From Candidatus Woesearchaeota archaeon (GTDB lineage Archaea > Nanobdellota > Nanobdellia > Pacearchaeales > GW2011-AR1), in assembly GCA_964559675.1 (NCBI GenBank), contig CAZLHJ010000002.1, forward strand, positions 658-64,657: 64,000 nt of DNA. Reading direction: 5' to 3'. Shown one piece after another: positions 17,138 through 46,611 of this stretch. The first letter of the stretch is position 1; every line of letters starts with the position of its first letter. The notes beneath the pieces were generated by a model. It saw only the letters and a program-made list of their open reading frames with translations. It searched no databases and had not been told where the DNA came from. Made by a program: the position numbers and the translations under genes.

Positions 17138-18739
17138 TTAAATTTTCTCAATAAACTCTCTAACTAAATCTAAGACTTCTTTTTGTTTTCCAGGTACGAA
17201 GTTAAGAGATCCTGCGTTTTTATGTCCGCCGCCCTCTATAAATGCAGTCGGTAATTTTTCGTTAATAAATTTCATTAATTCTTGTACTGAGAAGTTAGCT
17301 TCGTCTGTTGCTCTAATCGTGATTGCAGTGCTTAAAACTCCTAATGTGACTAATTTTTTAACACCTTTTGTTTTTTGTAGATCGTCGTGAATTAGACCTA
17401 TAGCAATTCCAGGGCGAGGATAAAATCCAAATCCTGGAAAAGCTTTTTCAACGAATATTTTTTGAACGGTAACTTTTCCAACAGATTCTACTTCTGAGCC
17501 TGCTCTTGCCATCGCAATACCTTTTGCTTCTAATCTTCTAACATATGGGGCCATTAACTTAACAAGATTTTTTTGTTTTTCTTTCGGTTCTCCAAATATA
17601 ACTTCGATATATTCTCTTGCTTCCATAAACTTCAATTTTGCCGATACAAAATCTATTACTGTCGCGATATCATCTAAAAGAGATTTTGGATATCCTTGTT
17701 CTTCTGCTAATTTCAAATAACCATTTACAACTTCAGGGTTGTCGATTCTGTCTGCTAATGAGGCCATTGCAGATATTTGAGCCATATTTTCTACATCTGG
17801 ATTTATGAATCTTGCAACTTCAGTGCATAACATTCCTGCAGAAAATTGAGAACCAGATTCGCCCACTAGAAACGGATTAATATGTGCTAGAACTTCTTGA
17901 GAAATTACATCTTTATCGTATGCGTGGTGATCTATAACAATGAAATCCATTCCATGGACCTTACCTTGTTGAATTCCGAAAAGATCTTGTTCTGTAGAAC
18001 CGTTATCTGCGATGATTACGAGAGGCATTTTATTTGAGAACTTTGCGACGTTTCTTAAGGAAGTAGCAGTATCTCTAATTGAATCATCTATTTCATAAAA
18101 TGGTGCTGAGCAAGGAGCTCTAGTGTAATACTCCCATGCCGCCTTTTCAGAAGAATGTTGTTTTTCAATTAGGGGGATAATTGCTTTTTCTAATGCAAAT
18201 CCCGAGCTATATCCGTCTGCATCGTTATGGTGTCGGACGATTATAGGCCTATTTTGGATAATTGCTAATCTTATCTCTGTTGCAGCTTTTACAAATTCAT
18301 TTTTTAACTTGTCTAAAATTGGAGATTCGACCATAAATTCTGGAGGCTCAATACTTGCTCTTTCTCTTTCTATTTTTTTTAAATTTTCTAAAAATTCAGA
18401 TCTTTCTTCTGGAGATAATTTTGAAATTTGAGTAACTTCTCCCTCTAATGCATCCCTAAATTCCTCGATTACGACTTCTGCCTTTATTGTATCTCCTTCG
18501 TTGATATCAGGGTGTGCCCTAACACCTGCACCTTCAAATGCTTTGAGAGAAAGAGATCCAGTTCCATCAGATATAGTAAATACTGTTGGTCCTCCAGTTT
18601 GTTGGACTCTATCGATTACCCCGACTAATTTGAAAATTCTTCCTTTATGTGAAGCATTTATATCCTCAATATTAGCAACTTCTGCTTTTTGTTTTTGTGG
18701 AGGAGAACTCTTCTTTCCTTTATCAAATTTCTTTTTCAT
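17138..18739 (-). CDS. RecJ-like DHH/DHHA1 phosphoesterase with N-terminal OB-fold
   Basis: DHH motifs VRHHNDADGYSS, ADNG and IDHHA, and the DHHA1 motif GGGHKNAGS. The N-terminal ~100 aa look like an OB fold (IFKLVGVIDRVQQTGGPTVFTISDGTGSLSLKAFEG). Confidence 0.75.
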   Translation of the reverse strand: MKKKFDKGKKSSPPQKQKAEVANIEDINASHKGRIFKLVGVIDRVQQTGGPTVFTISDGTGSLSLKAFEGAGVRAHPDINEGDTIKAEVVIEEFRDALEGEVTQISKLSPEERSEFLENLKKIERERASIEPPEFMVESPILDKLKNEFVKAATEIRLAIIQNRPIIVRHHNDADGYSSGFALEKAIIPLIEKQHSSEKAAWEYYTRAPCSAPFYEIDDSIRDTATSLRNVAKFSNKMPLVIIADNGSTEQDLFGIQQGKVHGMDFIVIDHHAYDKDVISQEVLAHINPFLVGESGSQFSAGMLCTEVARFINPDVENMAQISAMASLADRIDNPEVVNGYLKLAEEQGYPKSLLDDIATVIDFVSAKLKFMEAREYIEVIFGEPKEKQKNLVKLMAPYVRRLEAKGIAMARAGSEVESVGKVTVQKIFVEKAFPGFGFYPRPGIAIGLIHDDLQKTKGVKKLVTLGVLSTAITIRATDEANFSVQELMKFINEKLPTAFIEGGGHKNAGSLNFVPGKQKEVLDLVREFIEKI

Positions 18740-18918
18740 ATATAGTAAATTGAAAGTGCTGTTAAAAACCTTTGCCTGTAATTTTTAGACTATTTTTTAT
18801 AAAGATTTGTTGTAATTTTTATTATTTAAAATGATTGAAAGTTTTTGTTATTGATCACAGGTTTAAGCATATAAAAAGCTTTAGCTAGCCTTAAATAGCC
18901 CTTTTTCGTCTATGAAAT

Positions 18919-19095
18919 ATGAGAAAAGTCAAAAATTCAAGAAAGAAAATCGAGGTAGAGCCTCCCCCCGAGAACAGTTTTGAAAAGATAGTTGATACTC
19001 TCCCGCATCAAATGATGCCTTTCTTAATCCTTAAAGCAGTAATGGGCGTAGCAACCAGCTTCTTTACATTATTTGCTGTAAGGAGGTTTATGTGA
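18919..19095 (+). CDS. Possible 58-aa tail-anchored membrane protein (not in the track)
   Basis: MRKVKNSRKKIEVEPPPENSFEKIVDTLPHQMMPFLILKAVMGVATSFFTLFAVRRFM. It ends 4 nt before the next ORF. Confidence 0.3.
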   Translation: MRKVKNSRKKIEVEPPPENSFEKIVDTLPHQMMPFLILKAVMGVATSFFTLFAVRRFM

Positions 19096-19099
19096 AAAG

Positions 19100-19327
19100 G
19101 TGATAGTCGATAATAGAAAATCTGGAATTTCCGACGATTATGAAGGAAGAATTGATGTTGATAAGGCACTAAATTCCCTTGGAGAACATCTGGTTTTAGA
19201 CCCTATGACTGGAAGACCTGTAAATTCAAGCTATAGAGAAGGAGTAGTTAGAAGATTAGCGGAAGAAAAGCAACAAGCAATGGATTCTAGGGGAACTAGT
19301 TATGTGCCTCCAAGATCTCAAATTTAA
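19100..19327 (+). CDS. Hypothetical protein (GTG start)
   Basis: Track ORF only; no recognisable motif. Confidence 0.35.
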   Translation: MIVDNRKSGISDDYEGRIDVDKALNSLGEHLVLDPMTGRPVNSSYREGVVRRLAEEKQQAMDSRGTSYVPPRSQI

Positions 19328-19395
19328 ATTTTATTTTTCGTGCTTATTAACACGAACCTTTGCCTTTGCTTAAACTTTCTAGTTCTGATTAAAAC

Positions 19396-19418
19396 ATTTA
19401 GCTTTATTAAAGCGAACT
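19396..19418 (+). repeat. 23-bp direct repeat ATTTAGCTTTATTAAAGCGAACT, copy 1
   Basis: Identical to 19827..19849. Confidence 0.9.
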
Positions 19419-19826
19419 CATTCAAAATCTTTAAAATTGTTTGAAGGTAGAAAGAATAAAAATTCTTAAATTAGAAAATTGGAGTGGGCAAGGTTAGAGA
19501 AAATTTAGAATATTTATTGGAAGTTATGAAGCCTTTGAGTGTTATGATGGCACTCAATTCAGTTTTTTTACTTACTCTAGTTTAGGTCTTCTTGCAATTT
19601 CGACATTTTATGGAGTAGAATCGGCCAACATGTCCCAAACACAACTATTTGCAACTTCATTAATGCATATAGGTTTAAGAGGAGGAATATATAATATATT
19701 TTCAAAAAATTCTTTGAATTATAAGAAAAAAGCAGATCAATTACAAAGAAGACAGGATTTGGCAACTAGGTGGTAATTAAAACGAACTTTCTACCTATGC
19801 TAAAAGTTTTTGTTTTTTGCATAAAG

Positions 19827-19849
19827 ATTTAGCTTTATTAAAGCGAACT
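19827..19849 (+). repeat. 23-bp direct repeat ATTTAGCTTTATTAAAGCGAACT, copy 2
   Basis: Identical to 19396..19418. It lies 42 nt upstream of the ATG at 19891. Confidence 0.9.
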
Positions 19850-19890
19850 TGTTTGGAAAAGAATATAAGTTTAGAAATTCTTGATAGTTT

Positions 19891-20145
19891 ATGAGTCTTG
19901 AAAAATTAAATCAATCTGAGTATGGAAATTTTAGAATGGTTGGAAATGAAAGCTTACCTATCTATTATGAGGTTGTAAATCCCTTAAAAAATCAGTGGAA
20001 TAGGGCTCAAAAATTAATTGATGAAAATGCACCTCAAAGAGCAACTCATTATAGGATTCCAAAAAACTCTGGAGGAGATCCGATTATAACGGATGATCTT
20101 AATGATAGAATTTTAGTTGAATATTTTATGAGAAAAAGCAGTTAA
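19891..20145 (+). CDS. Hypothetical protein
   Basis: Track ORF. A TATA-like AATATAAG lies about 25 nt upstream of the ATG, suggesting a leaderless transcript. Confidence 0.4.
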   Translation: MSLEKLNQSEYGNFRMVGNESLPIYYEVVNPLKNQWNRAQKLIDENAPQRATHYRIPKNSGGDPIITDDLNDRILVEYFMRKSS

Positions 20146-20257
20146 ATTTAGGTAGAAAAGTACCTGAAAATCTGAAATTTTTCAAAAAGAGGTCAAAAGT
20201 TCGTGTTAACCTTGTCAAAGGTTCTCTTAATGCATCTTGTGCGAACCATTGTTAAAA

Positions 20258-20512
20258 TTAATACTCATACATTTCATTCCAAGCATTTTCTGCCTTTTTT
20301 GAGAGTTTATCTGCTAAGGAAGGATTACTGCCCCTTACAATTTCTGAGCGAAACTTGTAAATGTCAGATTTTGCACAATAGTAGCTTGCCCTGTCATCTG
20401 AATCTATGTGGATTCCATTTAAAAAATCAGAATATATTTCTCTTATAGTCTTAATAGCAGCAAGATAGAAAATTTTTTTAAGACCTTCTGCTGTTTTTTT
20501 GTCGACTTCCAT
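20258..20512 (-). CDS. Hypothetical helical protein
   Basis: Track ORF. The TATA-like TTAAATAC lies about 17-24 nt upstream of the ATG. Confidence 0.4.
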   Translation of the reverse strand: MEVDKKTAEGLKKIFYLAAIKTIREIYSDFLNGIHIDSDDRASYYCAKSDIYKFRSEIVRGSNPSLADKLSKKAENAWNEMYEY

Positions 20513-20564
20513 TAGAGGTTCTAAGGTTTAGAGTATTTAATGATTATTGTAAAATATTGAGCGT

Positions 20565-20610
20565 ACTCGGCGCTTCGCGCCTCATGAAATAATAGTAGCT
20601 AATTTTTAGG
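20565..20610 (+). repeat. ~46-bp repeat with GC hairpin core, copy A
   Basis: ACTCGGCGCTTCGCGCCTCATGAAATAATAGTAGCTAATTTTTAGG. The core is GGCGC-TTC-GCGCC. Confidence 0.85.
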
Positions 20611-20743
20611 AAATTAACGCGAACTCTGGAATTTTTATATTAATTTTATGATAGAAAGTTCGTTTTATATTTATGCTGGAAGAAATTAGAAATGATAGAA
20701 AGTTTTAGCGCTGGATTTATTAAAAATAAAGAAAAAGGATAAA

Positions 20744-20965
20744 TCAATATTTTGATCTATCCATAGGAGACATTAGTTTAGATATAAGGAAAATCATCCA
20801 AATACCTGAAAGACCTACTAATAGGTAAATGATTAATTCGGCTGTTGGCCACGCTCCAAATATTAGATTTACTAAATTGAAGCCAAAAGCTACTAGTCCC
20901 CAATTAATCGCCCCTATGATTACAAGCACTGTTGCAATCCAGTCAATCGCATTTAAGTTTCTCAT
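20744..20965 (-). CDS. DUF378-type two-TM small membrane protein
   Basis: AIDWIATVLVIIGAINWGLVAFGFNLV...LLVGLSGIW matches the DUF378 pattern as I remember it. It is a paralogue of 21355..21567. Confidence 0.7.
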   Translation of the reverse strand: MRNLNAIDWIATVLVIIGAINWGLVAFGFNLVNLIFGAWPTAELIIYLLVGLSGIWMIFLISKLMSPMDRSKY

Positions 20966-21019
20966 GGAAAAAGTAATGCGTGAAGATTTATTAAAACTCG
21001 TGGTATTTTTAGAACAAAA

Positions 21020-21295
21020 TTATTTTTGTTTTTCTATTTGTTTTTCCTCTTTTTTTCTTCTCCTGAATTCAAGGTTTTGTGCCTTTTGAGAAGCTTTCCC
21101 TATGTATATAGTTACTAAGACTGCTAAAATTGTAACAACTAATGCGTATCCCCAAGGGCCACTTTTTGCTAGGAAACCTAAGGGAGCTCCTTCCTGGAAT
21201 AAAGATTGAATTGCATTATTCCATGCAAGGGCGGCTACCAACCCAAAAGCAGCAGTTGATAATGAGGCGAGTTTTTCTATAACTTCTTTTTTCAT
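21020..21295 (-). CDS. Small membrane protein with AAFGLVAALAWNNAI motif (DUF5654-like)
   Basis: Starts at the internal Met (MKKEVIEKLASLSTAAFGLVAALAWNNAIQSLF). It shares this motif with 21705..22019 and 22022..22276. Confidence 0.6.
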   Translation of the reverse strand: MKKEVIEKLASLSTAAFGLVAALAWNNAIQSLFQEGAPLGFLAKSGPWGYALVVTILAVLVTIYIGKASQKAQNLEFRRRKKEEKQIEKQK

Positions 21296-21354
21296 TTTGA
21301 TAATTAAAAGGTTAAATAAAAAGGTTAAATAAAAATAAAGGTTTTTGTCCAAAT

Positions 21355-21567
21355 TTACTTGAACAACTTAACTAATAACCATAGACCGGATAAACCTACC
21401 AATAGGTAAACTATTGCTGCTACTGCTGGCCATGATCCGAAGACTATAGCTACAAGATCCCAACTGTAATCTATAGCAGAGAAACTGTTTAATCCTACAA
21501 GGCCCCAGTTTAATGCTCCTATGATTACAAGAATAGATGCTATCCAATCAATTGCGCTTCTTTCCAT
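21355..21567 (-). CDS. DUF378-type two-TM small membrane protein
   Basis: AIDWIASILVIIGALNWGLVGLN...LLVGLSGLW. Confidence 0.7.
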   Translation of the reverse strand: MERSAIDWIASILVIIGALNWGLVGLNSFSAIDYSWDLVAIVFGSWPAVAAIVYLLVGLSGLWLLVKLFK

Positions 21568-21670
21568 TTTAAAAACCTCCTTTCATAATGATATTATTTT
21601 GAGGTTTTTGTGCTTTTTATTTGTTTTGGGTTGGTAAAAATGTGTTTAGAAAAAGAAAAACAGGTGTTGA

Positions 21671-21689
21671 GGTGTTTGGACAGGTGTTT
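21671..21689 (+). repeat. 19-mer GGTGTTTGGACAGGTGTTT, copy 1
   Basis: Exact 19-mer in the spacer between two small-membrane-protein genes. Confidence 0.9.
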
Positions 21690-21704
21690 TATCGACGATA
21701 TAGT

Positions 21705-22019
21705 TTATAGGTAGGGTTTATCTTGTAAGTATTTTGAGGTGATTAGGATAATAATAATACCTAAAATAGTCATAAATGTGGCAGTTAAAGCTTGAGATGA
21801 AAGGGCAGATTCTGCTTGATAAAAGTGAGCGAGAATAGCTTGAAAAAAGGTGAAAATAACCTCCCTCCAGACAAATGCAATTGTGAACCCGATAGTCACA
21901 ATGATTAGAAGTCGCATTTGTTTTTTGAATTCTTTTTTGTAATAGTGGCTGACCTGGAATGCGTCTGAGACTCTGTTTTTTAAAGATTTATGACTTGGAG
22001 TTATACGTCTGAATACCAT
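21705..22019 (-). CDS. Small membrane protein, paralogue of 21020..21295
   Basis: FKKQMRLLIIVTIGFTIAFVWREVIF plus a C-terminal TM segment. Confidence 0.55.
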   Translation of the reverse strand: MVFRRITPSHKSLKNRVSDAFQVSHYYKKEFKKQMRLLIIVTIGFTIAFVWREVIFTFFQAILAHFYQAESALSSQALTATFMTILGIIIILITSKYLQDKPYL

Positions 22020-22021
22020 TT

Positions 22022-22276
22022 TTATTTATCTTTTAGAATTTTAGATGTGAGAAATAAAATTATTACTGCAAAAAGAGTGATTGCTAACGCAGTTATGGAT
22101 TCTGTCAAGACAAACTCTGTTGAATTGATTATTTGTCCAATTAGATTCTGTGCAGAATTATAGATTGCATTTCTCCATGCGAAAGCTACAGTAAAACCAA
22201 TTGCTGCGATGATTGCAAGCCTTAATTGTCTCTTGAATTCTTTTTTGAAGGACTTTTTTGTCTTGAATACTTTCAT
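22022..22276 (-). CDS. Small membrane protein, paralogue of 21020..21295
   Basis: FKRQLRLAIIAAIGFTVAFAWRNAIYN plus a C-terminal TM segment. A GGTGA Shine-Dalgarno-like element lies 5 nt upstream of the ATG at 22276. The track start at 22285 is an alternative. Confidence 0.6.
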   Translation of the reverse strand: MKVFKTKKSFKKEFKRQLRLAIIAAIGFTVAFAWRNAIYNSAQNLIGQIINSTEFVLTESITALAITLFAVIILFLTSKILKDK

Positions 22277-22342
22277 TTTTATCACCTAATTTCTCTCAAA
22301 ATTGTATAAGGATAGTTGGTTTTTATATGTATTGTACGGCGC

Positions 22343-22389
22343 ACTCGGCGCTTCGCGCCTCATGGAATAATTGTGGCTAAATTTGTAAG
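22343..22389 (+). repeat. ~46-bp repeat with GC hairpin core, copy B
   Basis: ACTCGGCGCTTCGCGCCTCATGGAATAATTGTGGCTAAATTTGTAAG. The first 22 nt are identical to copy A. Confidence 0.85.
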
Positions 22390-22428
22390 ATTGTGGGGCG
22401 CGAGAGTTCGTTTAATTTTACATAAAAA

Positions 22429-22447
22429 GGTGTTTGGACAGGTGTTT
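22429..22447 (+). repeat. 19-mer GGTGTTTGGACAGGTGTTT, copy 2
   Basis: Exact copy in the divergent spacer 22286..22718. Confidence 0.9.
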
Positions 22448-22551
22448 GAAACAATTGTAAAAGATTAAAAGTTTTAGCTAAGATTAGATTAAATGAGTTT
22501 TTTAGGTGTTTTTTTATAAATTTATTTATCGTCGATAAACAGGTGTTTTGG

Positions 22552-22570
22552 GGTGTTTGGACAGGTGTTT
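22552..22570 (+). repeat. 19-mer GGTGTTTGGACAGGTGTTT, copy 3
   Basis: Exact copy in the same spacer. Confidence 0.9.
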
Positions 22571-22718
22571 TTATTAATTATAGGGGTGTTTAAAAATTAT
22601 TTTTGTTTTTTTTGTGGTGTTTGGTGGTGTTTTTTTAATCTTTTATTAAAAAACAAATTTGGTATTTTTACGGCTTCTAGTAGTAAAATTTATAAAGAAT
22701 GCTGTTTAAAATAAGAGT

Positions 22719-23327
22719 ATGTTTTTCTGGAATTCAAAAAAAAGAATTGAGAAGATTGAGGAAAATACTCAAAAAGGATTTGATTCTGTAAAAAAGGATA
22801 TGGATGTGATTGGAAAATGGATTAAACACCTTGATAGGCAAGACAAACAGGTGTTTGATATTTTAAATTCTTTAAAATTGGATTTATCGTCTATTCAAGA
22901 AGAGGTTGAAAGTTTAAGAGAAGCGGTTGATTTAATTTCTGATTCTGAAAAAAACAAACAGGTGTTTAAAAAATTGCCTGTTTTGAGTAAACAGACAGGT
23001 GTTGAAGGTGTTCAAAAAGCTGTCCAAACAGCTGTCCAAACAGACAATTTTTACGAAATTTTCAAAAACTTAAGTGGAAATGAAAAAATTTTAATTTTGG
23101 CACTCATGCAAGCGGATATGAAGTTGAGTTATGAAGATTTGTCTTTAATGTTGGGAAAAGAGAGATCAACAATAAGGGGACAAGTAAATGCGATTAAGCA
23201 GAAAAATGAGGGTTTGATTGAAGAAATTGTTGAAAAATCGGGTAAAAAAAGAGTATATATTCCTGAAGAAATTAAGGAAAAACTGTCAAAATACGCAAAA
23301 GTGAGAGTTAAAAAGAGGAAGAATTGA
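22719..23327 (+). CDS. Coiled-coil / short-repeat / C-terminal winged-helix protein (family member 1)
   Basis: N-terminal coiled coil (GFDSVKKDMDVIGKWIKHLDRQ). The centre holds KQVF and AVQT repeats. The C-terminal wHTH-like part reads LSGNEKILILALMQADMKLSYEDLSLMLGKERSTIRGQVNAIKQK. Confidence 0.6.
   Translation: MFFWNSKKRIEKIEENTQKGFDSVKKDMDVIGKWIKHLDRQDKQVFDILNSLKLDLSSIQEEVESLREAVDLISDSEKNKQVFKKLPVLSKQTGVEGVQKAVQTAVQTDNFYEIFKNLSGNEKILILALMQADMKLSYEDLSLMLGKERSTIRGQVNAIKQKNEGLIEEIVEKSGKKRVYIPEEIKEKLSKYAKVRVKKRKN
23020..23042 (-). repeat. Tandem inverted copies of the TGTTTGGACAG core inside CDS 22719..23327
   Basis: The plus strand reads CTGTCCAAACAGCTGTCCAAACA, which is the reverse complement of TGTTTGGACAG twice. 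Confidence 0.85.
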
Positions 23328-23344
23328 GGTTAAACGAACTTAAA

Positions 23345-23628
23345 ATGGCTAAAAACATGAAAAGTGAGAGTTATTCTGAAAGAAAATCGTCTAATTTTCA
23401 AGAAAAGTTACAAGAAGTGAGAGATATTTTGAGAAAATTGGATGTAATAGATAGGTGGAAAGCAGGTGTAAAAAATTTGAAAGATTTTGAATAAAAATGA
23501 TCAAAAAAAGAGAAAAAAAGCTAATAGATTGGAAGAGTTGAGTGAAAAATTCAAAAAGTGAGGGAATATTGGAAAGAGAGATCAATTTTCCTGAGGAATT
23601 GAGTGAAAAACTAGAAAGTGTGAGCTAA
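23345..23628 (+). pseudogene. Decayed third copy of the coiled-coil/wHTH family
   Basis: 23345..23494 encodes a 49-aa N-terminal fragment; LQEVRDILRKLDVIDRWKAGV resembles VKKDMDVIGKWIKHL. 23542..23628 encodes ...SEGILEREINFPEELSEKLESVS*, which resembles the member-1 C-terminus NEGLIEEIVEKSGKKRVYIPEEIKEKLS. The wHTH middle part is missing. Confidence 0.45.
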
Positions 23629-23775
23629 AGATATTTGGCTTTATATGGTCTAAAAAGCCTAAATTTGAGGCTTTTGGAGTGTTTCACAATTGGAGAAATG
23701 AAAATAGACATAATTGTAATTAGATATTCGTTTAAAAGAATAACTAAAATAAATTTTAGATAAAATAGTAATTTT

Positions 23776-24561
23776 TTATAGACTTCTGAGTTGAATTAAT
23801 GTGGGAAGAGAGACTATTTTTCTTAATGAATTCGAGAGAGATAAGAAGATTTTCTTATTATTTTCTCTGATTTTTTCTATAGGTATTCCTTTTTTTAGAA
23901 TTCTTTGTATATAATCCCGTATCGAAGACTCAGTTAGATTAAGAGTTGTTGAGAGCATTAAATAATCGACGATAAATCCTTTTTCTTCTAATTCATAGAG
24001 GGTTTGCAATACTTGCATCTCTTGATTGGTAAGCTTCTTTACTTTAGATCTGAGTTCTTTCTTAATATCATCTAAAGAGGCTAAAAATTCTGAGAGTTGG
24101 TGGAGTTTGTCCACTCGGATTTGGGCCTTATGTGTTGGAATATGTGTCGAAGAATGTGTCGAATTATAGGATTGTGCGAACTTGACCCCTTCATTTCCTG
24201 TCGAAGTGTCTGTCTGTTGGTCTGTCTGTCTGTCTGTCGAAACCCCCTTATTTCTTGTGGAAATGTCTAAATTTGAGCTTTTTACGCGTTCTAGAGGCAA
24301 ATTACCTGTCGAAGAATGTGTCGAAAGGTCTTTTTCTGTTTGATTTACTTGTTCTTGAGTTGGATTAATCTGTCGAAGTGTCTGTCTAATTGTTGGATTA
24401 TTCGTTGGATTGATTGTCTGTCTGTCTAAAGTTCGTTTTAGTTCTCTAATTTCATTTGTTAGATTAGAAATCTCTGATTGTATGTCTAGAATATCTTGTT
24501 TCACCTTTGCAAATGCGTCTTTTATAGCGTCAGCCATGTTTTTTAGAACTGACTTAAGCAT
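23776..24561 (-). CDS. Coiled-coil / short-repeat / C-terminal winged-helix protein (family member 2)
   Basis: The N-terminus AFAKVKQDILDIQSEI...TLDRQ aligns with member 1. The centre is repetitive (STHSST, DRQTDQQTD, INPT). The C-terminal part is LTNQEMQVLQTLYELEEKGFIVDYLMLSTTLNLTESSIRDYIQRILKKG. Confidence 0.6.
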   Translation of the reverse strand: MLKSVLKNMADAIKDAFAKVKQDILDIQSEISNLTNEIRELKRTLDRQTINPTNNPTIRQTLRQINPTQEQVNQTEKDLSTHSSTGNLPLERVKSSNLDISTRNKGVSTDRQTDQQTDTSTGNEGVKFAQSYNSTHSSTHIPTHKAQIRVDKLHQLSEFLASLDDIKKELRSKVKKLTNQEMQVLQTLYELEEKGFIVDYLMLSTTLNLTESSIRDYIQRILKKGIPIEKIRENNKKIFLSLSNSLRKIVSLPTLIQLRSL

Positions 24562-24642: not shown

Positions 24643-24960
24643 ATGGGAAGAGCAGTAATCTTGGTCGGAAAATTAAATCATATATCTGAGAGTTATCAGT
24701 TTATGATTGGTCTAGAGTATTCCTCAGGCATTTATATTGGTTCAGAAGATAGGGCACAATTTTACGATGAATTTTCAGATTTTATTGTTCAAAAAGTTTT
24801 GAATTTTGGTTCTAATCTCCAATTGGGGGTATTGAATGGTTGGAGAATTGGTGAAGCGGGGAATGAACGAATAGGAAAACTTGAAGAACATTTAGTTGAA
24901 AAACTTTCGGGAATTGTGAAGAGAAAGATTATAGAAAATACCTCTTCGCAATCTATATGA
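24643..24960 (+). CDS. Hypothetical protein
   Basis: Track ORF. TTTATAAA lies about 24 nt upstream of the ATG. Confidence 0.4.
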   Translation: MGRAVILVGKLNHISESYQFMIGLEYSSGIYIGSEDRAQFYDEFSDFIVQKVLNFGSNLQLGVLNGWRIGEAGNERIGKLEEHLVEKLSGIVKRKIIENTSSQSI

Positions 24961-25025
24961 AATATTACCTAGAAATACGTTAAATTGATAGACAGATTTA
25001 TATAATTTTGAGTTTGAATATAAAT

Positions 25026-25223
25026 ATGTCGGGTGAAAACTATATGGGTAGAAATGTTGAGGAAGGAAAGGGCTATGACTTTGAAGATGGAACTAGAGTT
25101 AGAACATTTACTACTGAAGAGATTAGGAATGGAAGAAGAAAGCCTGTTGAAACTTATAGATTTTGTCAGGCGATGAGACATTGGAGAGAAAGAAGTATGG
25201 ATAGCCATAGAAGATTTGATTAA
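25026..25223 (+). CDS. Hypothetical small basic protein
   Basis: The ATG at 25026 is preferred over the TTG at 25008 used by the track. No motif recognised. Confidence 0.35.
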   Translation: MSGENYMGRNVEEGKGYDFEDGTRVRTFTTEEIRNGRRKPVETYRFCQAMRHWRERSMDSHRRFD

Positions 25224-25272
25224 TTTATTCTATTTAACTAAAATTTATTAAGAGTATTGACTTGATAGAATC

Positions 25273-25485
25273 GTGTTTGAGGAAAGAGAAGATATGGATG
25301 ATTTTTATTTACCTGAAATAATTAATAGGGGGGAAGAGATTGTTTTTGAGAGTTTAGTAAACCCTGATCCTTCTTTGAGATACAGGATTATTCATGAGGG
25401 TCGTAATGACATTTATAATAAGTTGGTTGAATTAGAGGAGAATAGATCTTCTGAAAGAGTTAAACTTGATGTCTTCCTGAATTAA
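25273..25485 (+). CDS. Hypothetical protein (GTG start)
   Basis: Track ORF only. Confidence 0.3.
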   Translation: MFEEREDMDDFYLPEIINRGEEIVFESLVNPDPSLRYRIIHEGRNDIYNKLVELEENRSSERVKLDVFLN

Positions 25486-25760
25486 TTGAATTTATTTAAT
25501 TTTGAATATATTTCATATGCTTCTTTTGTAAGGGTCCAACGTTGACGTCTTTTATAGTCTAAACCTAGAGAATTTTTATTAATTTCTGAGACTAAATTCT
25601 TTTTCTTAAGATCTGATAGAATAGATTTTGTGAATTCTTCATCCCGGGCGATTTCTTGTGCAATTTTATTGGTGAATTGTGCTGAAGGAGATGTTGAAAA
25701 TAAGTAATGTAGGATTTGTTCTGAAATCTTTTGAATCTTTTGTTGAGATATTTTGGGCAT
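25482..25760 (-). CDS. Small winged-helix DNA-binding protein
   Basis: 92 aa. ISEQILHYLFSTSPSAQFTNKIAQEIARDEEFTKSILSDLKKKNLVSEI...RRQRWTLTKEAYEIY follows a helix-turn-helix plus wing pattern. Confidence 0.55.
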   Translation of the reverse strand: MPKISQQKIQKISEQILHYLFSTSPSAQFTNKIAQEIARDEEFTKSILSDLKKKNLVSEINKNSLGLDYKRRQRWTLTKEAYEIYSKLNKFN

Positions 25761-26183: not shown

Positions 26184-28781
26184 GTGAAAATGACTAGTAT
26201 AGAATATATTGATGCGCTTCCTAGTAAGGAAGTTGAAAAAATCTTGAACCCTCTTGTCAAGGAATGGTTCTTTGGAAGGTTTGAGGATTTCAGCCTTACT
26301 CAGAGGTATAGTGTAAAGAGAATTCATGATAGGAAAAATATTCTTGTGAGTGCGCCTACTGGTGGAACTAAAACTTTGAGTGCGTTCTTGAGTATTTTGA
26401 ACTATTTGGTAGATATTAGTTTGAAAAAAGAACTTGAAGATAAGATTTATGCCGTTTATTGTTCACCACTTAAGGCCTTGAGTAATGATATTTATGTTAA
26501 TTTAATTAGACCTCTTGAAGAAATTAAAGAATTGGCTGAGAAAAGAGGTTTGAAGATGCAAGATATTAGGGTAGGGTTAAGGACTGGAGATACAGATGCT
26601 AAAGAAAGAGCGAAAATGGCTAGGAAAGTTCCACACATACTTGTAACAACTCCGGAAAGTTTAGCTATTGTTTTAACCACTCCTAAAATGGTTGAAAATT
26701 TGAGAGCACTTGAGTTTGTAATTATTGATGAAATTCATGCTTTAACTAATAAAAGAGGAGTTTATTTGAGTTTGACCTTAGAAAGATTACATGATACAAG
26801 TTTAATCGAACCTGTGAGGATAGGTTTGAGCGCGACAGTCTCCCCTATTGAAGAAGTTGCTAAATTTTTAGTTGGGGAAGGAAGAGAATGCAATATAGCT
26901 CAAGTTAAAATGGTAAAGAAGATAGAAATTGAATTAGATTTTCCTGGGAAAAACATACTTGAAGCTGAGAGTTTGGAAAGCCAGAAAGAATTATACCACT
27001 TATTGGATGGGATAATAGAGAAGAATAGAACTACTTTAATTTTTACAAATACTAGGGCGGCTACTGAAAGAATAATTCATTATTTAGATTTACATTTTCC
27101 TGGAAAATATGTTGGGAATATTGGTGCACATCATAGTTCAATGAGTAAAGATCAGAGGTTTATGATCGAAGAGAGATTGAGAAATGGAGACTTGAAGGTA
27201 GTTGTTAGTTCTACCAGTTTAGAATTGGGAATAGATATTGGAAGTATAGATATTGTTGTACTTTTGAAGAGCCCTAAGGGAGTTTCTAGATCATTACAAA
27301 GAATAGGTAGAGCAGGACATAAATTACATGATAATCCTAGGGGAAAATTTATTGTTTTGGATAGAGATGATTTAGTCGAATGTAGTGTTTTGATGAAAGA
27401 TATGATTGAAGGTAAGATTGATCGGGCAGATATACCTAAAAACTCACTTGATGTTTTGGCTCAGCAAATTTATGGAATGGCGATAAGTAGAATTTGGGAT
27501 GTTGATGAGATGTTAAGAGTAATTAGAAGAAGTTACTGTTATAAAGATTTGAGTAAAAATGATTTCTTTGATGTTTTGAGTTATCTTGCAGGAGATTATG
27601 CCCTTGAACACAGAAGTGTTTATGGAAAGATATGGTATGATCCTGAGACTAAACAAGTTGGAAAGAAAGGCAAATTAGCTAGAGTTATATATATGACTAA
27701 CATTGGAACAATTCCTGATGAGAGTTATATTTCGGTAGTTGTTCAAGCTCCAGCGGAAAGGAAGGGGCAAGTTGTTGGAAAAATTGACGAGGGTTTTCTT
27801 GAAAGAATGAAGAGGGGAGATGTATTTACATTAGGTGGTCAGAAATTTCAATTCTTGTATACTCGAGGAATGAAAGCATATGTGTCTGCAGATGTTAGTA
27901 AAAAAGTCACAATCCCTAGTTGGTTTAGTGAAATGTTGCCTCTGAGCTACGATGTTGCATTGGATATTGGTAAATTTAGATCGTATGTTAAAGAAAGAAT
28001 TAAGAAAAAGAAAGAGTGTATTGAGTTTATTAAAGATTATATTCATTGTAATGATAAAATAGCTAAAGAAATTTATAATTATTTTTATGAACAGTTTAAG
28101 TTTTCTGAAATTCCAGATTATAAGACAATAGTGATTGAGAAGTTTAAGGAAGAAAAAGAATATTTGATGTTTCATACCTTATTTGGGAGAAGAGTTAATG
28201 ATGTTTTAAGTAGGGCGTTTGGGTTTGCTGCTGGAAGATTGAAAATGAGAGATGTTGAAGTTGGAATAAGTGATAATGGATTCTATATTGCGGGAGAAGG
28301 ATTGGATGAGGAGAAAATTCTTAAGTTTGTTAATAGTAAAGATTTAGGAAAGATTTTAGAAGAAGCTTTGGAAAAAACAGAAGTTTTGAAGAGAAGATTC
28401 AGACATTGTGCAGGTAGAAGTTTGATGATATTGAGAAATTATAAAGGTAGAGAGAAGAGCGCGGGAAGGCAACAAGTCCATTCTGGAATTTTATATGCTG
28501 CAGTTAGAAAAATAAGTAAGGATTTTCCAATATTAAGGGAAGCTAGAAGAGAAGTTTTAGAAGATTTGATGGATATAAAAAGTGCGACCGAGGTAATTGA
28601 ATATATCGAGAAAGGTAAAATTAAAGTTGTTAAGAAAAGATTACCTTTTGTTAGTCCGTTTGGTCTGAATTTAATGATGCAAGGAAGATCTGATTTGATT
28701 AAAATGGAAGATAGAAATAATTTCTTGAAGAGGATGCATAAGTTACATATGAAAGCAATTGGCGAAGATGAAAGTAAATAA
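26184..28781 (+). CDS. lhr: Lhr-type superfamily 2 DNA helicase
   Basis: Motif I SAPTGGTKT, motif II DEIH, motif III SAT and motif VI QRIGRAGH. The 865-aa length with a long C-terminal extension is typical of the Lhr core. Confidence 0.85.
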   Translation: MKMTSIEYIDALPSKEVEKILNPLVKEWFFGRFEDFSLTQRYSVKRIHDRKNILVSAPTGGTKTLSAFLSILNYLVDISLKKELEDKIYAVYCSPLKALSNDIYVNLIRPLEEIKELAEKRGLKMQDIRVGLRTGDTDAKERAKMARKVPHILVTTPESLAIVLTTPKMVENLRALEFVIIDEIHALTNKRGVYLSLTLERLHDTSLIEPVRIGLSATVSPIEEVAKFLVGEGRECNIAQVKMVKKIEIELDFPGKNILEAESLESQKELYHLLDGIIEKNRTTLIFTNTRAATERIIHYLDLHFPGKYVGNIGAHHSSMSKDQRFMIEERLRNGDLKVVVSSTSLELGIDIGSIDIVVLLKSPKGVSRSLQRIGRAGHKLHDNPRGKFIVLDRDDLVECSVLMKDMIEGKIDRADIPKNSLDVLAQQIYGMAISRIWDVDEMLRVIRRSYCYKDLSKNDFFDVLSYLAGDYALEHRSVYGKIWYDPETKQVGKKGKLARVIYMTNIGTIPDESYISVVVQAPAERKGQVVGKIDEGFLERMKRGDVFTLGGQKFQFLYTRGMKAYVSADVSKKVTIPSWFSEMLPLSYDVALDIGKFRSYVKERIKKKKECIEFIKDYIHCNDKIAKEIYNYFYEQFKFSEIPDYKTIVIEKFKEEKEYLMFHTLFGRRVNDVLSRAFGFAAGRLKMRDVEVGISDNGFYIAGEGLDEEKILKFVNSKDLGKILEEALEKTEVLKRRFRHCAGRSLMILRNYKGREKSAGRQQVHSGILYAAVRKISKDFPILREARREVLEDLMDIKSATEVIEYIEKGKIKVVKKRLPFVSPFGLNLMMQGRSDLIKMEDRNNFLKRMHKLHMKAIGEDESK

Positions 28782-30782: not shown

Positions 30783-30999
30783 GATTAAATTTTAAGATGG
30801 TAAGTATATAAATATTATTGTTGGGAAAATAGAGATAATTGAGAGTTTAATATTGATGATTTTTTTATATATTGAAACGTGATTGATATTTTTGATAATA
30901 GTGTGGAATTAATAGGTATTGGGTAAGGGTAAGTGGAAAATTAATAGAAATATATTTTATTGTGAGTTTTGATGAAAATATTAAATAAAATTGAGTTAA

Positions 31000-31027
31000 C
31001 TCCCCCACCCTTGCGTTTCTTATGGAA
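31000..31027 (-). promoter_or_regulatory. ORB-like origin recognition box 1
   Basis: The minus strand reads TTCCATAAGAAACGCAAGGGTGGGGGAG, that is TTCCA...GAAA plus a G-string. Confidence 0.75.
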
Positions 31028-31080
31028 AAATAATAAACTTTAAATAAGGAAGACTTTCTTTTCTTTTTCTATTTTTCTTT

Positions 31081-31140
31081 TTTAAATATATATATTATAT
31101 ATTATATATTATATTATATATAATTATAAAGTATATGTTA
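31081..31140. other. AT-only DNA unwinding element
   Basis: TTTAAATATATATATTATATATTATATATTATATTATATATAATTATAAAGTATATG contains only two G and no C. Confidence 0.7.
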
Positions 31141-31184
31141 TAGTTCGTATTAATTTGAGACGTATTAATTTGTTATTTATTTAG

Positions 31185-31210
31185 TTCCATAAGAAGTGTA
31201 GGTGTGGGTG
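31185..31210 (+). promoter_or_regulatory. ORB-like origin recognition box 2
   Basis: TTCCATAAGAAGTGTAGGTGTGGGTG. Confidence 0.7.
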
Positions 31211-31263
31211 TAGATTTATTGTTTTTGTATTTATTCATTATTTTTCGAGGATAATTAAATAAA

Positions 31264-31289
31264 TTCCATGAGAAATAACGGTTGGTGTG
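31264..31289 (+). promoter_or_regulatory. ORB-like origin recognition box 3
   Basis: TTCCATGAGAAATAACGGTTGGTGTG. Confidence 0.6.
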
Positions 31290-31341
31290 CAGATAAGTTT
31301 ATATATGAAAATAAGTTTAACAAATTATCAAAGAGGTTGAA

Positions 31342-32547
31342 ATGGACAAATTAGATTCGATATTTAATTCTTATGTAGAAAATAAATTATTTACTAATAA
31401 GACTGTTCTTCAATCTAATTATACTCCAGACACCATCCCTCATAGAAATGCGCAAATAGAAAGTGTTGCTTCCATACTAGCTCCATCATTACGTGGAGAA
31501 AAAGTAAGTAATTTATTTGTTTATGGGAAAACTGGAAGTGGTAAGACATTAAGTGTTCAACACGTTGGAAACAGAATAAAGGAAAAGATGAAAGAACTCG
31601 GACATGATCATTTAAGATTTTTATACGTTAATTGCAAATTAAAAAAAGTTGCAGACACAGAATATAGGATTATTGCAGAGTTGATAAAAGAATTAGGCGG
31701 GAGTGTTCCAGCTACAGGTTTACCTACAGATGAGGTTTATTCAAGATTCATTGATATGGTAGATAGTAAGAAGCAAGTTATATTATTGGTATTAGATGAA
31801 ATAGATCAAGCTGTTAAGAAAATTTCAGATAATTTCATCTATACATTAACTAGAGTTAATTCAGATTTAAAAAATGCTCAGATTAGCCTGATAGGTATTA
31901 GTAACAGTTTGACATTCATGGATAATTTAGACCCTAGGGTAAAAAGTAGTTTAGGAGAAGAAGAATTAGTTTTTCCACCTTATAATGCTTTACAATTACA
32001 AGATATTTTAAGGGAGAGGGCTGAGAGTGCTTTTAAGGAAGGGATTTTACAGGAAGGAGTGTTGTCTAAATGTGCAGCATATGCTGCAAGAGAGCATGGG
32101 GATGCAAGGAGGGCTTTAGATTTACTAAGGGTAGCTGGCGAGTTAGCCGAAAGAGAGGGCAGTGAGAAAATCAAATTGGAACATATTGATATGGCTAATC
32201 AAAAAATAGAGAAAGATAAGATGTTAGATATAATTGAAAGTGAACCTACACAATTCCAACTAGTTCTTTACTCAATAATGTTATTAACAGAAAATAAAGG
32301 TAAAGATGGAATTTACACAGGAGATGTTTATAGTATGTATGAATCAATATGTAATAAAACAAAAAGTGAAATTTTAACCCAAAGAAGAGTTTCAGATATT
32401 TTATCTGAGTTTGATATGTTAGGTATAATTAATGTGAGTGTAGTAAGCAAAGGAAGACATGGAAGGACTAGAGAAATAAAGTTGATGTTAGCACCCAATA
32501 TAAAAGAAAAGGCCAAAGAAATTTTGGAAAAATCATTACATATATGA
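31342..32547 (+). CDS. cdc6: Orc1/Cdc6 replication initiator
   Basis: AAA+ Walker A YGKTGSGKT, Walker B LVLDEID, the sensor region and a C-terminal winged helix (GRHGRTREI). Confidence 0.9.
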   Translation: MDKLDSIFNSYVENKLFTNKTVLQSNYTPDTIPHRNAQIESVASILAPSLRGEKVSNLFVYGKTGSGKTLSVQHVGNRIKEKMKELGHDHLRFLYVNCKLKKVADTEYRIIAELIKELGGSVPATGLPTDEVYSRFIDMVDSKKQVILLVLDEIDQAVKKISDNFIYTLTRVNSDLKNAQISLIGISNSLTFMDNLDPRVKSSLGEEELVFPPYNALQLQDILRERAESAFKEGILQEGVLSKCAAYAAREHGDARRALDLLRVAGELAEREGSEKIKLEHIDMANQKIEKDKMLDIIESEPTQFQLVLYSIMLLTENKGKDGIYTGDVYSMYESICNKTKSEILTQRRVSDILSEFDMLGIINVSVVSKGRHGRTREIKLMLAPNIKEKAKEILEKSLHI

Positions 32548-32556
32548 GAAAACAAA

Positions 32557-34146
32557 ATGAAACAGGAAATATTAAATGTAGTAAAGGAAAAAGGTATTTT
32601 ATTAGAGAGGGATGTCTTCAATTTAGTTAATAATATAGATGACCCTAAAATAGTTAGGCAATTTTTAGAGAGTTTAGAGTTAGCTTCAACTCAAAAAATG
32701 ATTACTAAAAAATTTATTGAAAGTAATTATGATTATATGAAAGTATTTTTAGCTTCTTTAGAAGATGATAAAAAAGAAATATTCTCTAAATTTTTTAATT
32801 TTAACGAACAAAAAAAAGAAGAAAAAGAAATAGTAGTAAAAAATACGGATAAAAAAGAAGGCTTGGATTATAAAATCTTTTATGCAGACACCAAACCTGA
32901 TAAAAAAATAGATTTGAAGGATTTCGTAGGCCACTTTAGGGCGAGATATAGTGAAATTCAAAGAATTTTGATGGGACGACCTGAATTGAGTACAAATTTA
33001 GTTTCCATAAACAAAATATCAAGTGAAAGGACTAGTTTATCTATAATTGGGATTGTAACTGAGAAAAGAATCACTAAAAATAAGAATATGGTAATTAGTT
33101 TTGAAGATTTAACTGGAAAAATAGGAGGGATTGTCAAAGTAGACAATGAAGAATTATTTTCAAAGGCAGATGAATTACAATTAGATGATATTGTTGGTGT
33201 AAAGGCGTCAGGAAATAGAGATTTGCTTTTTATTCATGATATTATCTTCCCAGATGCATTTTTACACGAGAAGACTAGATTTAATGAGGATATTTCCATA
33301 GCCTTTCTTTCAGATTTACATGTTGGAAGTGATAGGCATTTAGGAAATAGTTTGAATAATTTTCTAAACTGGATAAATAGCGATGATGAGGTTGCTAGAA
33401 AAATAAAATATATTTTTTTTGTAGGAGATAATGTGGATGGGGTAGGGGTTTTCCCAGGTCAAGATAAGGTTTTGAAATTGAAAAGTATGAATGAACAATA
33501 TGGTTTATTGGCTTCTTATTTAAAGAAGATTCCAAAAAATATCACCATGTTTATGTGTCCAGGTCAGCACGATGCAACAAGAGTTCATGAGCCTCAACCA
33601 ATTATCAGTAAAAAATACGCTCCTGATTTATATGAAGTAGAAAATTTAACTTTAGTAACTAATCCTACCTTGGTTAAATTATTAGAGGGTGAAAAAGAAT
33701 TCAAGGTTTTAATGTATCATGGTGCGAGTATTCACAATTACATTAATGAAATTAAAGAGTTGAGGTTAATGAAAGCACATAGGTGTCCAGCAAAAGCAGT
33801 TAAACATATGTTGAAAAGGAGACATTTAGCATCAAGTCATGGTGTGAGTACTAGTATAGTTTATATTCCAAATGCTGAGAAAGATCCGTTAGTTATAAGT
33901 GAAGTTCCAGATGTGTTATGTACTGGAGAAGTTCATAGGTTAGATATAGAAAATTATAATGGCGTGTTGATTGTGACTGGAAGTTGTTGGCAAGCACAGA
34001 CCCCCTTTGAAGAAAAAGTCGGAAATATTCCAGATCCTTGTAAGGTTCCAGTTTTAAATTTGAAAAGTGGGGAATTGAGGATTTTCGATTTCGGAATTGA
34101 AGAAGAAATAAAAAGGAATTATAACGAAGGGAAGGAAGTAAAATGA
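32557..34146 (+). CDS. dp1: DNA polymerase D small subunit (DP1)
   Basis: Calcineurin-like phosphoesterase motifs DLHVGS, GDNVDG, GQHD, YHG and GEVH follow an OB-like region. 529 aa. Confidence 0.9.
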   Translation: MKQEILNVVKEKGILLERDVFNLVNNIDDPKIVRQFLESLELASTQKMITKKFIESNYDYMKVFLASLEDDKKEIFSKFFNFNEQKKEEKEIVVKNTDKKEGLDYKIFYADTKPDKKIDLKDFVGHFRARYSEIQRILMGRPELSTNLVSINKISSERTSLSIIGIVTEKRITKNKNMVISFEDLTGKIGGIVKVDNEELFSKADELQLDDIVGVKASGNRDLLFIHDIIFPDAFLHEKTRFNEDISIAFLSDLHVGSDRHLGNSLNNFLNWINSDDEVARKIKYIFFVGDNVDGVGVFPGQDKVLKLKSMNEQYGLLASYLKKIPKNITMFMCPGQHDATRVHEPQPIISKKYAPDLYEVENLTLVTNPTLVKLLEGEKEFKVLMYHGASIHNYINEIKELRLMKAHRCPAKAVKHMLKRRHLASSHGVSTSIVYIPNAEKDPLVISEVPDVLCTGEVHRLDIENYNGVLIVTGSCWQAQTPFEEKVGNIPDPCKVPVLNLKSGELRIFDFGIEEEIKRNYNEGKEVK

Positions 34147-45596: not shown

Positions 45597-45917
45597 TTGA
45601 TGAGTGTTTTAAATGAAGTGGAGCCTACAGGAATTTCTCCTTCTATCAATATTAATTCATTATCTCCTGAGAACTTTAGAACCATGGTTTATGAAGGAAT
45701 TGTGGAATTTTTACTAGTTCGTGGAGGTAGGGATTTCGAGGGAATTGTTTTGAGGGGAGAAGAACAAAATTGTGGAAGAGTTTATCAAGAGATTCATGAT
45801 AAGATAGAGAGTATGCCAGTCTACATAAATGAAAGAACCTCTGGAAAAAATAATTGGAATTTAGATTTAGATGATTTAATTAGGTTGTATAAATTACGAC
45901 AAGATGCGTTTAAGTAA
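45597..45917 (+). CDS. Hypothetical protein
   Basis: Track ORF, 106 aa. Confidence 0.4.
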   Translation: MMSVLNEVEPTGISPSININSLSPENFRTMVYEGIVEFLLVRGGRDFEGIVLRGEEQNCGRVYQEIHDKIESMPVYINERTSGKNNWNLDLDDLIRLYKLRQDAFK

Positions 45918-46581: not shown

Positions 46582-46611
46582 GGAGGAAAAAGGAAATTAA
46601 AGTTAATTAAA

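Follow-up and report, generated by a model that had tools for sequence, protein, structure and literature searches.

Phased DNA motif arrays and origin recognition box-like elements in an origin-proximal gene pair of DPANN archaea

Binding sites that lie in the gene of their own binder are known from the ori-lambda iterons in gene O and from parS in B. subtilis spo0J, and lacO2 and galOI are intragenic operators. Short repeats phased by the helical turn are likewise familiar from plasmid RepA iterons and from parC of plasmid R1. Here, we describe a pair of convergent genes in a 64,000-nucleotide stretch of the genome of a Candidatus Woesearchaeota archaeon (contig CAZLHJ010000002.1, ~31% G+C; the whole stretch is hereafter called the window). 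The two genes, which we call A (22719-23327, + strand, 202 amino acids) and B (23776-24561, - strand, 261 amino acids), are predicted to encode DNA-binding proteins with disordered central linkers, and their centers are conserved as DNA, in motifs that continue into the flanking non-coding sequence with a helical phasing of ~10.5 bp. To our knowledge, the architecture of DPANN origins and the factors associated with them are unstudied. Indeed, the literature that we searched on the architecture of origin recognition boxes (ORBs) and on DPANN origins describes neither the A/B arrangement nor the architecture and associated factors of DPANN origins, and a term search of a 2026 Nanobdellota preprint (bioRxiv 10.64898/2026.05.13.725050) returned no A/B family or arrangement.

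Like ori-lambda, spo0J, lacO2 and galOI, the A/B locus has a cis-element placed in coding sequence, in a part that encodes a linker-like segment, where it would cooperate with external sites. It differs from them in that the binding of A and B to their own genes is something we infer from sequence, and in that its arrays are much denser, comprising three motif classes over ~2 kb that are conserved across an archaeal order. With the RepA iterons and parC of R1 the locus shares short repeats, phased by one turn, that flank a promoter beside the gene of the presumed binder. By contrast, A and B are core chromosomal genes, no DNA unwinding element (DUE) or partner NTPase was identified at their locus, and their repeats enter the open reading frame (ORF). 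A further relative is found among the ORBs of archaeal origins: the Pyrococcus mini-ORB TTCCAGTGGAACT has invariant TTCC and GAA cores, and a second ORB cluster, known from Thermococcales, lies within the coding sequence of dp1, where Cdc6 binds it in vivo in Pyrococcus (PMC1904270). The ORBs of haloarchaea end in a G-string (PMC3528665). The ingredients of the A/B locus (winged-helix regulators, ORBs, intragenic operators and iteron-like phasing) are thus of known kinds. What is new is the A/B family and its arrangement, in which three phased arrays and an ORB run through two paralogous genes beside oriC and are conserved across a DPANN order.

Frozen coding DNA and phased arrays at gene A

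The initial annotation of this DNA had listed both ORFs, the peptide repeats KQVF and AVQT in A and STHSST, DRQTDQQTD and INPT in B, and the DNA units (CAGA)n and TGTCGAAG, all of which are present. It had also taken the repeat centers to be rapidly changing. This does not hold for A, whose center is the most conserved part of the gene, with NKQVFKKLPVLGKQT.VE.VQ.AVQTAVQT near-invariant across the family; in B it applies in part, to Q/T/N/P tracts of variable length, and not to the invariant core that these tracts surround. Judged from the aligned codons of 67 A and 47 B genes, with background usage taken from 70,000 flanking codons, the A center and the B core are the slowest-evolving parts of their genes rather than diversifying protein repeats, and the same alignments show purifying selection at the nucleotide level.

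Synonymous sites in A are frozen across 66 genomes. K43-Q44-L45-F46 is written AAA CAG CTG TTT, a perfect palindrome, with CTG for leucine in 48/53 genes against a background of 8%. K36-H37-L38 is written AAA CAC CTT (CAC for histidine in 58/63), S57-S58 is TCG TCG (49/53 and 35/43; background 8%), and N79-K80-Q81-V82-F83 is AAC AAA CAG GTG TTT, with GTG for valine in 36/36. The x-V-Q-T-x-V-Q-T block reads NNT GTY CAA ACR NNT GTY CAA ACA, and its residue x is free to vary (A/P/G/V/S/T/D/N) with the third base of the codon held at T in 65-66 of 66 genomes. Amino acids vary where the DNA spacer is free, namely at x of xVQT in A and at the middle codon of TCC-NNN-GGA-AAT in B. Over conserved residues, codon entropy is 0.36 bits in A codons 36-110 against 1.03 bits in the A winged helix (p 6e-6), and 0.16 bits in the B core against 1.33 bits in the B winged helix (p 2e-7). 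An overlapping ORF as the source of this constraint was rejected, because no alternative frame stays open across the loci. It is the DNA that is conserved; the repeats in the peptide, which fall in a disordered linker, are a side effect of it.

The motifs at A form a helically phased TGTTT/AAACA array (AAACAGCTGTTT; CTGTYCAAACAG tandems) that spans ~-250 to +330. Inside the gene, it occupies codons 36-108 (22824-23042, + strand) as AAACACCTT, AAACAGGTGTTT (KQVF, twice), TTATCGTC and two copies of CTGTCCAAACAG (AVQTAVQT). Upstream, it takes the form of an iteron-like array of nine GGTGTTT in 10-12 bp steps (22426-22640, + strand), within which lie the composite TGTTTGGACAGGTGTTT (22431-22447 and 22554-22570) and the palindrome ATCGTCGAT (22528-22536); a TATA-like box of A is found near 22686. 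A distal copy of the module, ACAGGTGTTG-AGGTGTTTGGACAGGTGTTT-TATCGACGATA, sits between two small membrane-protein genes (21660-21700, + strand). The two parts of the array mirror each other: the paired CTGTCCAAACAG copies in A are the reverse complement of upstream TGTTTGGACAG, the composite TGTTTGGACAGGTGTTT on the 5' side of A is reverse-complementary to the AVQTAVQT-coding DNA, and in the window the upstream motif copies stand on the strand opposite to the in-gene copies (- versus +). The upstream palindrome TGTTTAAACA is unencodable in the A frame because GTT TAA ACA holds a stop codon, and in-gene TGTTCAAACA is its nearest stop-free form.

That the ORFs sit amid matching DNA repeats, as first annotated, is borne out far above chance. 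With at most one mismatch, ACAGGTGTTT matches the window 13 times where 3.4 matches are expected, and 10 of the 13 fall in 21660-23035, both intergenically and in A; likewise, 14 of the 21 window matches to GGTGTTT lie within 21671-22967. The order 5' of A is conserved and consists of TATCGACGATA, GGTGTTT repeats, the core TGTTTAAACAGCTGTTT, more GGTGTTT, ~90 nt, the TATA box, ~25 nt and the ATG. For comparison across species, we used 80 species-representative 10-kb loci. AAACASSTGTT sites gather at -300 to -100 and +100 to +400 of the A start and are nearly absent elsewhere in these loci. In 77 of them, the 400 bp upstream of A hold 6.7 copies of STGTTT on the coding strand and 1.8 on the other strand, against a background of 0.31 (22-fold), with spacing peaks at 10-12, 21 and 31-32 bp, that is, helically phased direct repeats beside gene A as in an iteron replicon. 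In metagenomes, the exact 17-mer TGTTTAAACAGCTGTTT is accompanied by an A gene in 65 of 120 loci, mostly 130-160 bp downstream of the match, and most of the remaining loci are higher-GC contigs and probably chance matches. The palindrome ATCGWCGAT has three exact matches in the window (0.17 expected), all at this locus. One of them, ATCGACGAT (23965-23973, + strand), lies in the part of B that encodes the winged helix (F-I-V-D-Y), where valine is GTC in 26/37 genes against a background of 9%.

The core of gene B and the A-B spacer

In the 47 aligned B genes, the core reads ATT TCC ANN GGA AAT NNN GGG GTT CCA ACA GAC AGA CAG ACA GAC, with TCC for serine in 46/47 (background 6%), GGG for glycine in 43/45 and aspartate always GAC (background 21%). 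In the window, B contains the ORB-like element TTTCCACAAGAAATAAGGGGG (24243-24263, - strand), read I-S-T-R-N-K-G-V, whose 12-nt core TTCCACAAGAAA is one base off the oriC ORB core TTCCATAAGAAA of the same genome and is followed by the same 3' G-string. A second, weaker copy, TTCGACAGGAAATGAAGGGGTC, is read T-S-T-G-N-E-G-V (24184-24205, - strand), and the two elements enclose a (CAGA)n-type tract that encodes T-D-R-Q-T-D-Q-Q-T-D (24207-24239, - strand). B carries one or two ORB-like boxes (TTCCAnnGGAAAT-N3-GGGG) and then (CAGA)n, and TTCCAnnGGAAA(T/C)-N3-4-GGGG is found inside B in essentially every locus. The element has two hallmarks of an ORB, the dyad (TTCC and GAA cores at mini-ORB spacing) and the G-string, GGGG(G), 3-4 nt past the dyad. 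A position weight matrix trained solely on 19 ORBs that precede orc1 in 13 genomes finds its top match inside B, on the B coding strand, in 54 of 73 ten-kb loci. At the level of sequence, the B core is shown to be an origin recognition box like those of the adjacent oriC.

The ORBs of B are single, direct, or inverted with their G-strings facing inward round (CAGA)n, and they lie ~2-7 kb upstream of orc1. Inverted pairs in other loci are 56-70 bp apart, and ORBs also occur occasionally upstream of A. As in archaeal ORBs and mini-ORBs, the TTCC...GAA dyad recurs in B at identical spacing with a 3' G-string, and several loci carry TTCCAGTGGAAAT in B, the first 11 bases of which are those of the Pyrococcus mini-ORB. 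Like the ORB cluster in dp1 of Thermococcales, the B element lies in a coding gene a few kb from oriC-orc1-dp1-dp2; unlike that cluster, it is placed in the linker of a predicted winged-helix protein, is kept as the peptide (I)S-x-G-N-x-G-V and is followed by (CAGA)n. It differs from origin ORBs in that it is unpaired round an AT-rich DUE, and it would be a putative Orc1 site. The middle residue of S-x-G-N varies (T/I/S/K) between fixed neighbors because the middle dinucleotide of the dyad is free. Across the 80 loci, the (CAGA)n motif occurs inside B only, with D always GAC, T always ACA and Q CAG. Species differ in its length, which ranges from 0 to 10 units, yet the reading frame is preserved in 115/115 B genes. 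Phase variation at the tract was considered and rejected, as none of these 115 genes is a frameshifted allele.

Between A and B, a decayed third copy of the genes had been proposed. This did not survive closer analysis: tblastn against the spacer finds similarity to A only at E 0.075-0.23, and what occupies it is not a pseudogene. Rather, it holds a conserved AAAGTGAG(A/G)GTT array (23298-23625, + strand), whose first copy encodes the C-terminal K-V-R-V of A and whose later copies (23361, 23414 and 23555, with a variant at 23616) fill the spacer. In the 80 loci, this motif has 284 matches at +400 to +1000 and ~17 elsewhere, all on the + strand. Spacers hold 3.2 copies on average, with spacing peaks in ~10-bp steps, and the 9-mer AAAAGTGAG is present in 102 of 130 spacers. 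After the last AAAGTGAG copy comes a conserved hairpin, GGGAATATTGG-N10-CAATTTTCC (23561-23600, + strand, within 23556-23603), with the flanks GUGA...CUGAGG or, more generally, GUGA...CUGA(U/G)G. Its 28 distinct homologous copies fold alike with compensatory changes, the stem being GGAAAAATTG/CAATTTTTCT in some and GGGAGCTTTG/CAACGCTCCT in others, and it has a kink-turn-like flavor. ARAGORN detected no tRNA genes in the window, and Rfam and tRNA scans of the A/B region came back empty.

The A and B proteins and possible roles of the locus

In AlphaFold2 models, A is predicted to consist of a coiled coil (residues 4-78), a disordered linker (79-109) and a winged helix (111-197), and B of a helix (2-49), a disordered linker (50-142) and a helix followed by a winged helix (144-260). 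Model confidence (pLDDT) is ~85 for A 111-197 and ~95 for B 179-260, within a range of 80-97 for the winged helices, both of which are modeled with three helices and a beta wing. The best Foldseek matches of the A C-terminal domain are AbfR2, MepR, SmtB and MexR (E 5e-4 to 5e-3), of the MarR/ArsR/Lrs14 type. The models and Foldseek are thus in line with the long N-terminal helix and C-terminal winged helix first annotated in both proteins. A would share its C-terminal fold with MarR/ArsR/Lrs14-type regulators (e.g. AbfR2, PDB 6cmv; Foldseek E ~5e-4). A and B, however, fall outside that sequence family, and a long N-terminal coiled coil and a disordered linker are predicted for them in place of the compact MarR dimer. 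Their membership in no characterized regulator family, likewise first proposed in the initial annotation, is upheld by Pfam and NCBIfam, which return nothing above cutoff, and by a sequence search of the PDB, which returns nothing meaningful. The best winged-helix matches in Pfam are HTH_AsnC at 14.7 bits (cutoff 27) and HTH_11 at 17.9 bits (cutoff 25), and A has only sub-cutoff matches in NCBIfam, such as Sta1 at 17.5 bits (cutoff 80). A weak match of the A profile to the OB-fold of PolD DP1 in the PDB sequence search (E 0.006) concerns another fold and was judged spurious.

The similarity of A and B at both termini, also claimed earlier, depends on how it is looked for. Pairwise BLASTP finds nothing meaningful (best E 0.08, in unrelated segments), and a family-A profile run against a single B sequence aligned the recognition helix alone (probability 4.6%). 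Profile-profile comparison with hhalign, on the other hand, gives a probability of 89% and an E of 2.4e-6 over 151 columns, which span the N-terminal F..VK.D motif, the center (KQT.VE.V..VQT.VQT in A versus STGNEGV.TDRQT..QTD in B) and the winged helix. Paralogy is therefore supported at the profile level only. With this proviso, the description of a paralogous pair of coiled-coil/linker/winged-helix build stands, and the pair is convergent in 79/80 related loci. Clustering at 90% identity leaves at least 2135 clusters in family A, and the 120 best of them are full-length and 64-72% identical; family B comprises 739 clusters at 90% identity and 876 representatives at 50% identity, with lengths of 165-387 amino acids. 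The source names are those of metagenome-assembled genomes of Pacearchaeota, Woesearchaeota and Nanoarchaeota.

We lean, with some reserve, towards a joint reading in which A and B are origin-side genes of DNA-binding proteins, with linkers that carry cis DNA elements, namely arrays for self-binding and, in B, sites for Orc1/Cdc6. The cis-acting elements would be written into those parts of the ORFs that encode a tolerant disordered linker. A, and probably B and/or the product of the neighboring gene o92, would act as coiled-coil dimers or oligomers that bind the phased TGTTT/AAACA and AAAAGTGAG arrays cooperatively. The resulting nucleoprotein complex would reach from ~250 bp upstream of A across the whole gene to the A-B spacer, and it would autoregulate the gene pair. 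Orc1/Cdc6 would bind the ORB or ORBs inside B and so couple the locus to initiator occupancy. The box could be an auxiliary site for Orc1, could titrate Orc1, or could let it act as a roadblock on B transcription; the ORB cluster within dp1 of Thermococcales is a precedent for such a placement (PMC1904270). Carried further, the A-B locus might be a hitherto unrecognized module of DPANN archaea that controls replication or chromosome organization. Two dedicated coiled-coil/winged-helix factors would then join the initiator on phased arrays, which extend into the genes of these factors, and form an origin-proximal, Orc1-bound nucleoprotein domain that could serve as a datA-like titration site, an auxiliary origin or a centromere. 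We offer this extension tentatively and consider it rather doubtful.

Several observations weigh against the joint reading. The ORBs of B score 11-25 bits where true oriC ORBs score 19-38, and they are not in the canonical origin arrangement, an inverted pair flanking an AT-rich DUE by orc1. Motif variants upstream and inside the gene covary only weakly (Fisher p 0.01, without correction for phylogeny). The uniformity of (CAGA)n could stem from replication slippage rather than selection. The AAAGTGAG motif keeps strictly to one strand and a covarying hairpin comes after it, so that part of its signal may act in RNA. Finally, GC skew gives no information on replication at the A/B locus: it shifts without sign inversion at A/B or oriC, and gene orientation explains most of the difference between left and right.

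WhiP at Sulfolobus oriC3 and plasmid RepA with its iterons are models for a winged-helix initiator, and the locus may by analogy belong to replication control, either as a second iteron-type origin with A as the initiator or as a locus of the datA kind, at which Orc1 is titrated or regulated and A and B are origin accessory factors. Phased direct repeats with an inverted-repeat core do stand beside a gene for a predicted winged-helix protein, ORBs lie inside B (some as inverted pairs) and occasionally upstream of A, the position is fixed at 3-9 kb from orc1, and the extended Cdc6-bound region round the oriC of Pyrococcus would be a precedent (PMC1904270). We nevertheless think replication control unlikely, since a complete canonical oriC with inverted ORBs and an AT-rich DUE already lies beside orc1, the G-strings of the B pairs face inward over a spacer of (CAGA)n that is not AT-rich, the genomes are smaller than 1 Mb, the skew does not invert at the locus and viral or mobile contigs hold no relatives. 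Nor did we find the other features of an iteron replicon at A/B, that is, a distinct DUE or a mobile context (the synteny is core, and IMG/VR holds no relatives). The phased short repeats lie around the promoter and gene of a predicted coiled-coil DNA-binding protein and extend into both, at a single-copy, origin-proximal locus, and would also suit an origin-proximal centromere to which A and B bind, on the model of ParR with parC round its own promoter or Spo0J with parS inside its own gene. This is improbable in our view, because a Pfam scan of 32 ORFs in the window, the remainder of the genome not having been searched, found no ParA/SegA/ParM-type NTPase, and because the predicted fold is a winged helix, neither ParB nor the ribbon-helix-helix of ParR-type centromere-binding proteins.

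Constraint at the level of RNA, in the form of mRNA or 3' untranslated region elements or of a small RNA in the A-B spacer, would account for the strict strand specificity of AAAGUGAG at the 3' end of A and downstream, and for the covarying hairpin with its GUGA...CUGA(U/G)G flanks, a kink-turn-like motif. We give it little credence. The TGTTT arrays are found on the 5' side of the TATA box, the upstream and in-gene copies in the window are on opposite strands (- versus +), the spacing steps of ~10 bp match the turn of the DNA helix, ORBs are known as DNA elements and the Rfam scan is empty. Moreover, AAACAGCTGTTT is a perfect palindrome without room for a hairpin loop, so that a dyad DNA site is indicated rather than an RNA stem-loop. 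There remains the reading closest to the initial annotation, in which hypervariable linkers of fast-evolving protein repeats make up the centers, and the repeats in the DNA merely reflect the coding of those repeats or are decayed gene copies. The Q/T/N/P tracts of B and (CAGA)n do vary in length between species, and the spacer contains weak A-like fragments. However, the near-invariant A center, the frozen synonymous sites, the recurrence of the phased motifs in non-coding DNA on both sides and the match of the B core to the oriC ORB contradict this reading, and we regard it as very improbable indeed.

Should the joint reading hold, disordered linkers would serve as real estate for cis-elements. 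Since linkers would then host such elements, 'conserved peptide motifs' such as AVQTAVQT and STGNEGV would be images of DNA sites, a caution for annotation that bears on how low-complexity motifs and synonymous constraint are read in compact genomes. For DPANN origins, the locus supplies concrete and conserved candidates, which comprise two uncharacterized, putatively DNA-binding proteins, three motif arrays and, at a constant distance from oriC, an additional ORB.

The origin-proximal neighborhood

A and B are a core, origin-proximal gene pair and not a mobile element. Related loci share a fixed gene order of small membrane-protein genes, A (+), B (-), o92 (-), an Lhr helicase gene where present, a metallophosphoesterase gene, o140, orc1 and dp1, in which the A start lies 3.1-4.2 kb from orc1 without the Lhr gene and 7.2-9.6 kb otherwise. 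A mobile-element origin of the pair was considered and rejected, as IMG/VR viral contigs hold no relatives of either family and the synteny is core chromosomal. The o92 gene (25482-25760, - strand) encodes a putative small winged-helix protein of 92 amino acids with a weak EarA-like Pfam match and keeps its place in 73/80 loci. In related genomes, it usually lies directly upstream of B with a median gap of 42 bp; in the window, ~920 bp are inserted between o92 and B (24643-25485), with two + strand ORFs of 105 and 70 amino acids that belong to no family.

The oriC of the window (30995-31290) lies upstream of orc1 and has the canonical layout, with inverted ORBs (TTTTCCATAAGAAACGCAAGGGTGGGGGAG, TTCCATAAGAAGTGTAGGTGTGGGTG) around a TATATA-rich element: one ORB is on the - strand (30995-31031), the AT-rich unwinding element is at 31080-31140, and two ORBs start on the + strand at 31184 and 31264. 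Downstream follow orc1/cdc6 (31342-32547, + strand; Pfam Cdc6_lid 8e-27, Cdc6_C 1e-26), dp1 for the small subunit of PolD (32557-34146, + strand; Pfam DNA_pol_E_B) and dp2 for the large subunit (34143-39035, + strand; PolC_DP2 domains). An intein with a LAGLIDADG homing-endonuclease domain interrupts DP2 (~36920-38280). Replication and repair genes cluster round the origin (9021-12223, 17138-18739, 26184-28781 and 45910-48171), comprising Rad50/Mre11-like proteins, a RecJ/GAN-like DHH protein, the Lhr helicase and an XPF/Hef-like nuclease and helicase. From 22000 to 64000, the GC skew of the + strand is very strongly positive even in - strand genes (skew at third codon positions ~+0.3). It is much weaker left of ~19 kb and does not change sign at the canonical oriC.

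On the other side of A, 18900-22300 holds only very small ORFs, including paralogous pairs of tiny membrane-protein genes: a DUF378-like pair (20744-20965 and 21355-21567), and m104 (21705-22019) with m87 (22022-22285). These genes are conserved neighbors of A, and one pair is preceded by the A-type motif module at 21660-21700. A further motif, TTAAACGAAC(T) or its reverse complement AGTTCGTTTAA, recurs intergenically here (19349-19420, 19778-19850, 20615-20680, 22400-22420) and in many related loci, often followed by TATGCTGGAAG, the start of small ORFs that begin M-L-E; it is probably a promoter or terminator module specific to the lineage. A highly conserved GC-rich hairpin, ..CGGGCGCGTTC-GGCGCTTCGCGCC-TCAC..ATTGTGGCTA-T-rich, is found at 20553-20640 and 22330-22420 and goes unrecognized by ARAGORN and Rfam. 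It occurs 1-4 times in the 5 kb upstream of A in many genomes, with 83 copies in the related loci (e.g. L003:2503, L025:2918/3688/4720, L035:794/1772/2306). The dinucleotides beside its TC/TC internal loop covary (GT..AC in 33 copies, AC..GT in 6, and also GG..CC/CA and AT..AT), and the element is a candidate for a novel structured RNA or repeat element.

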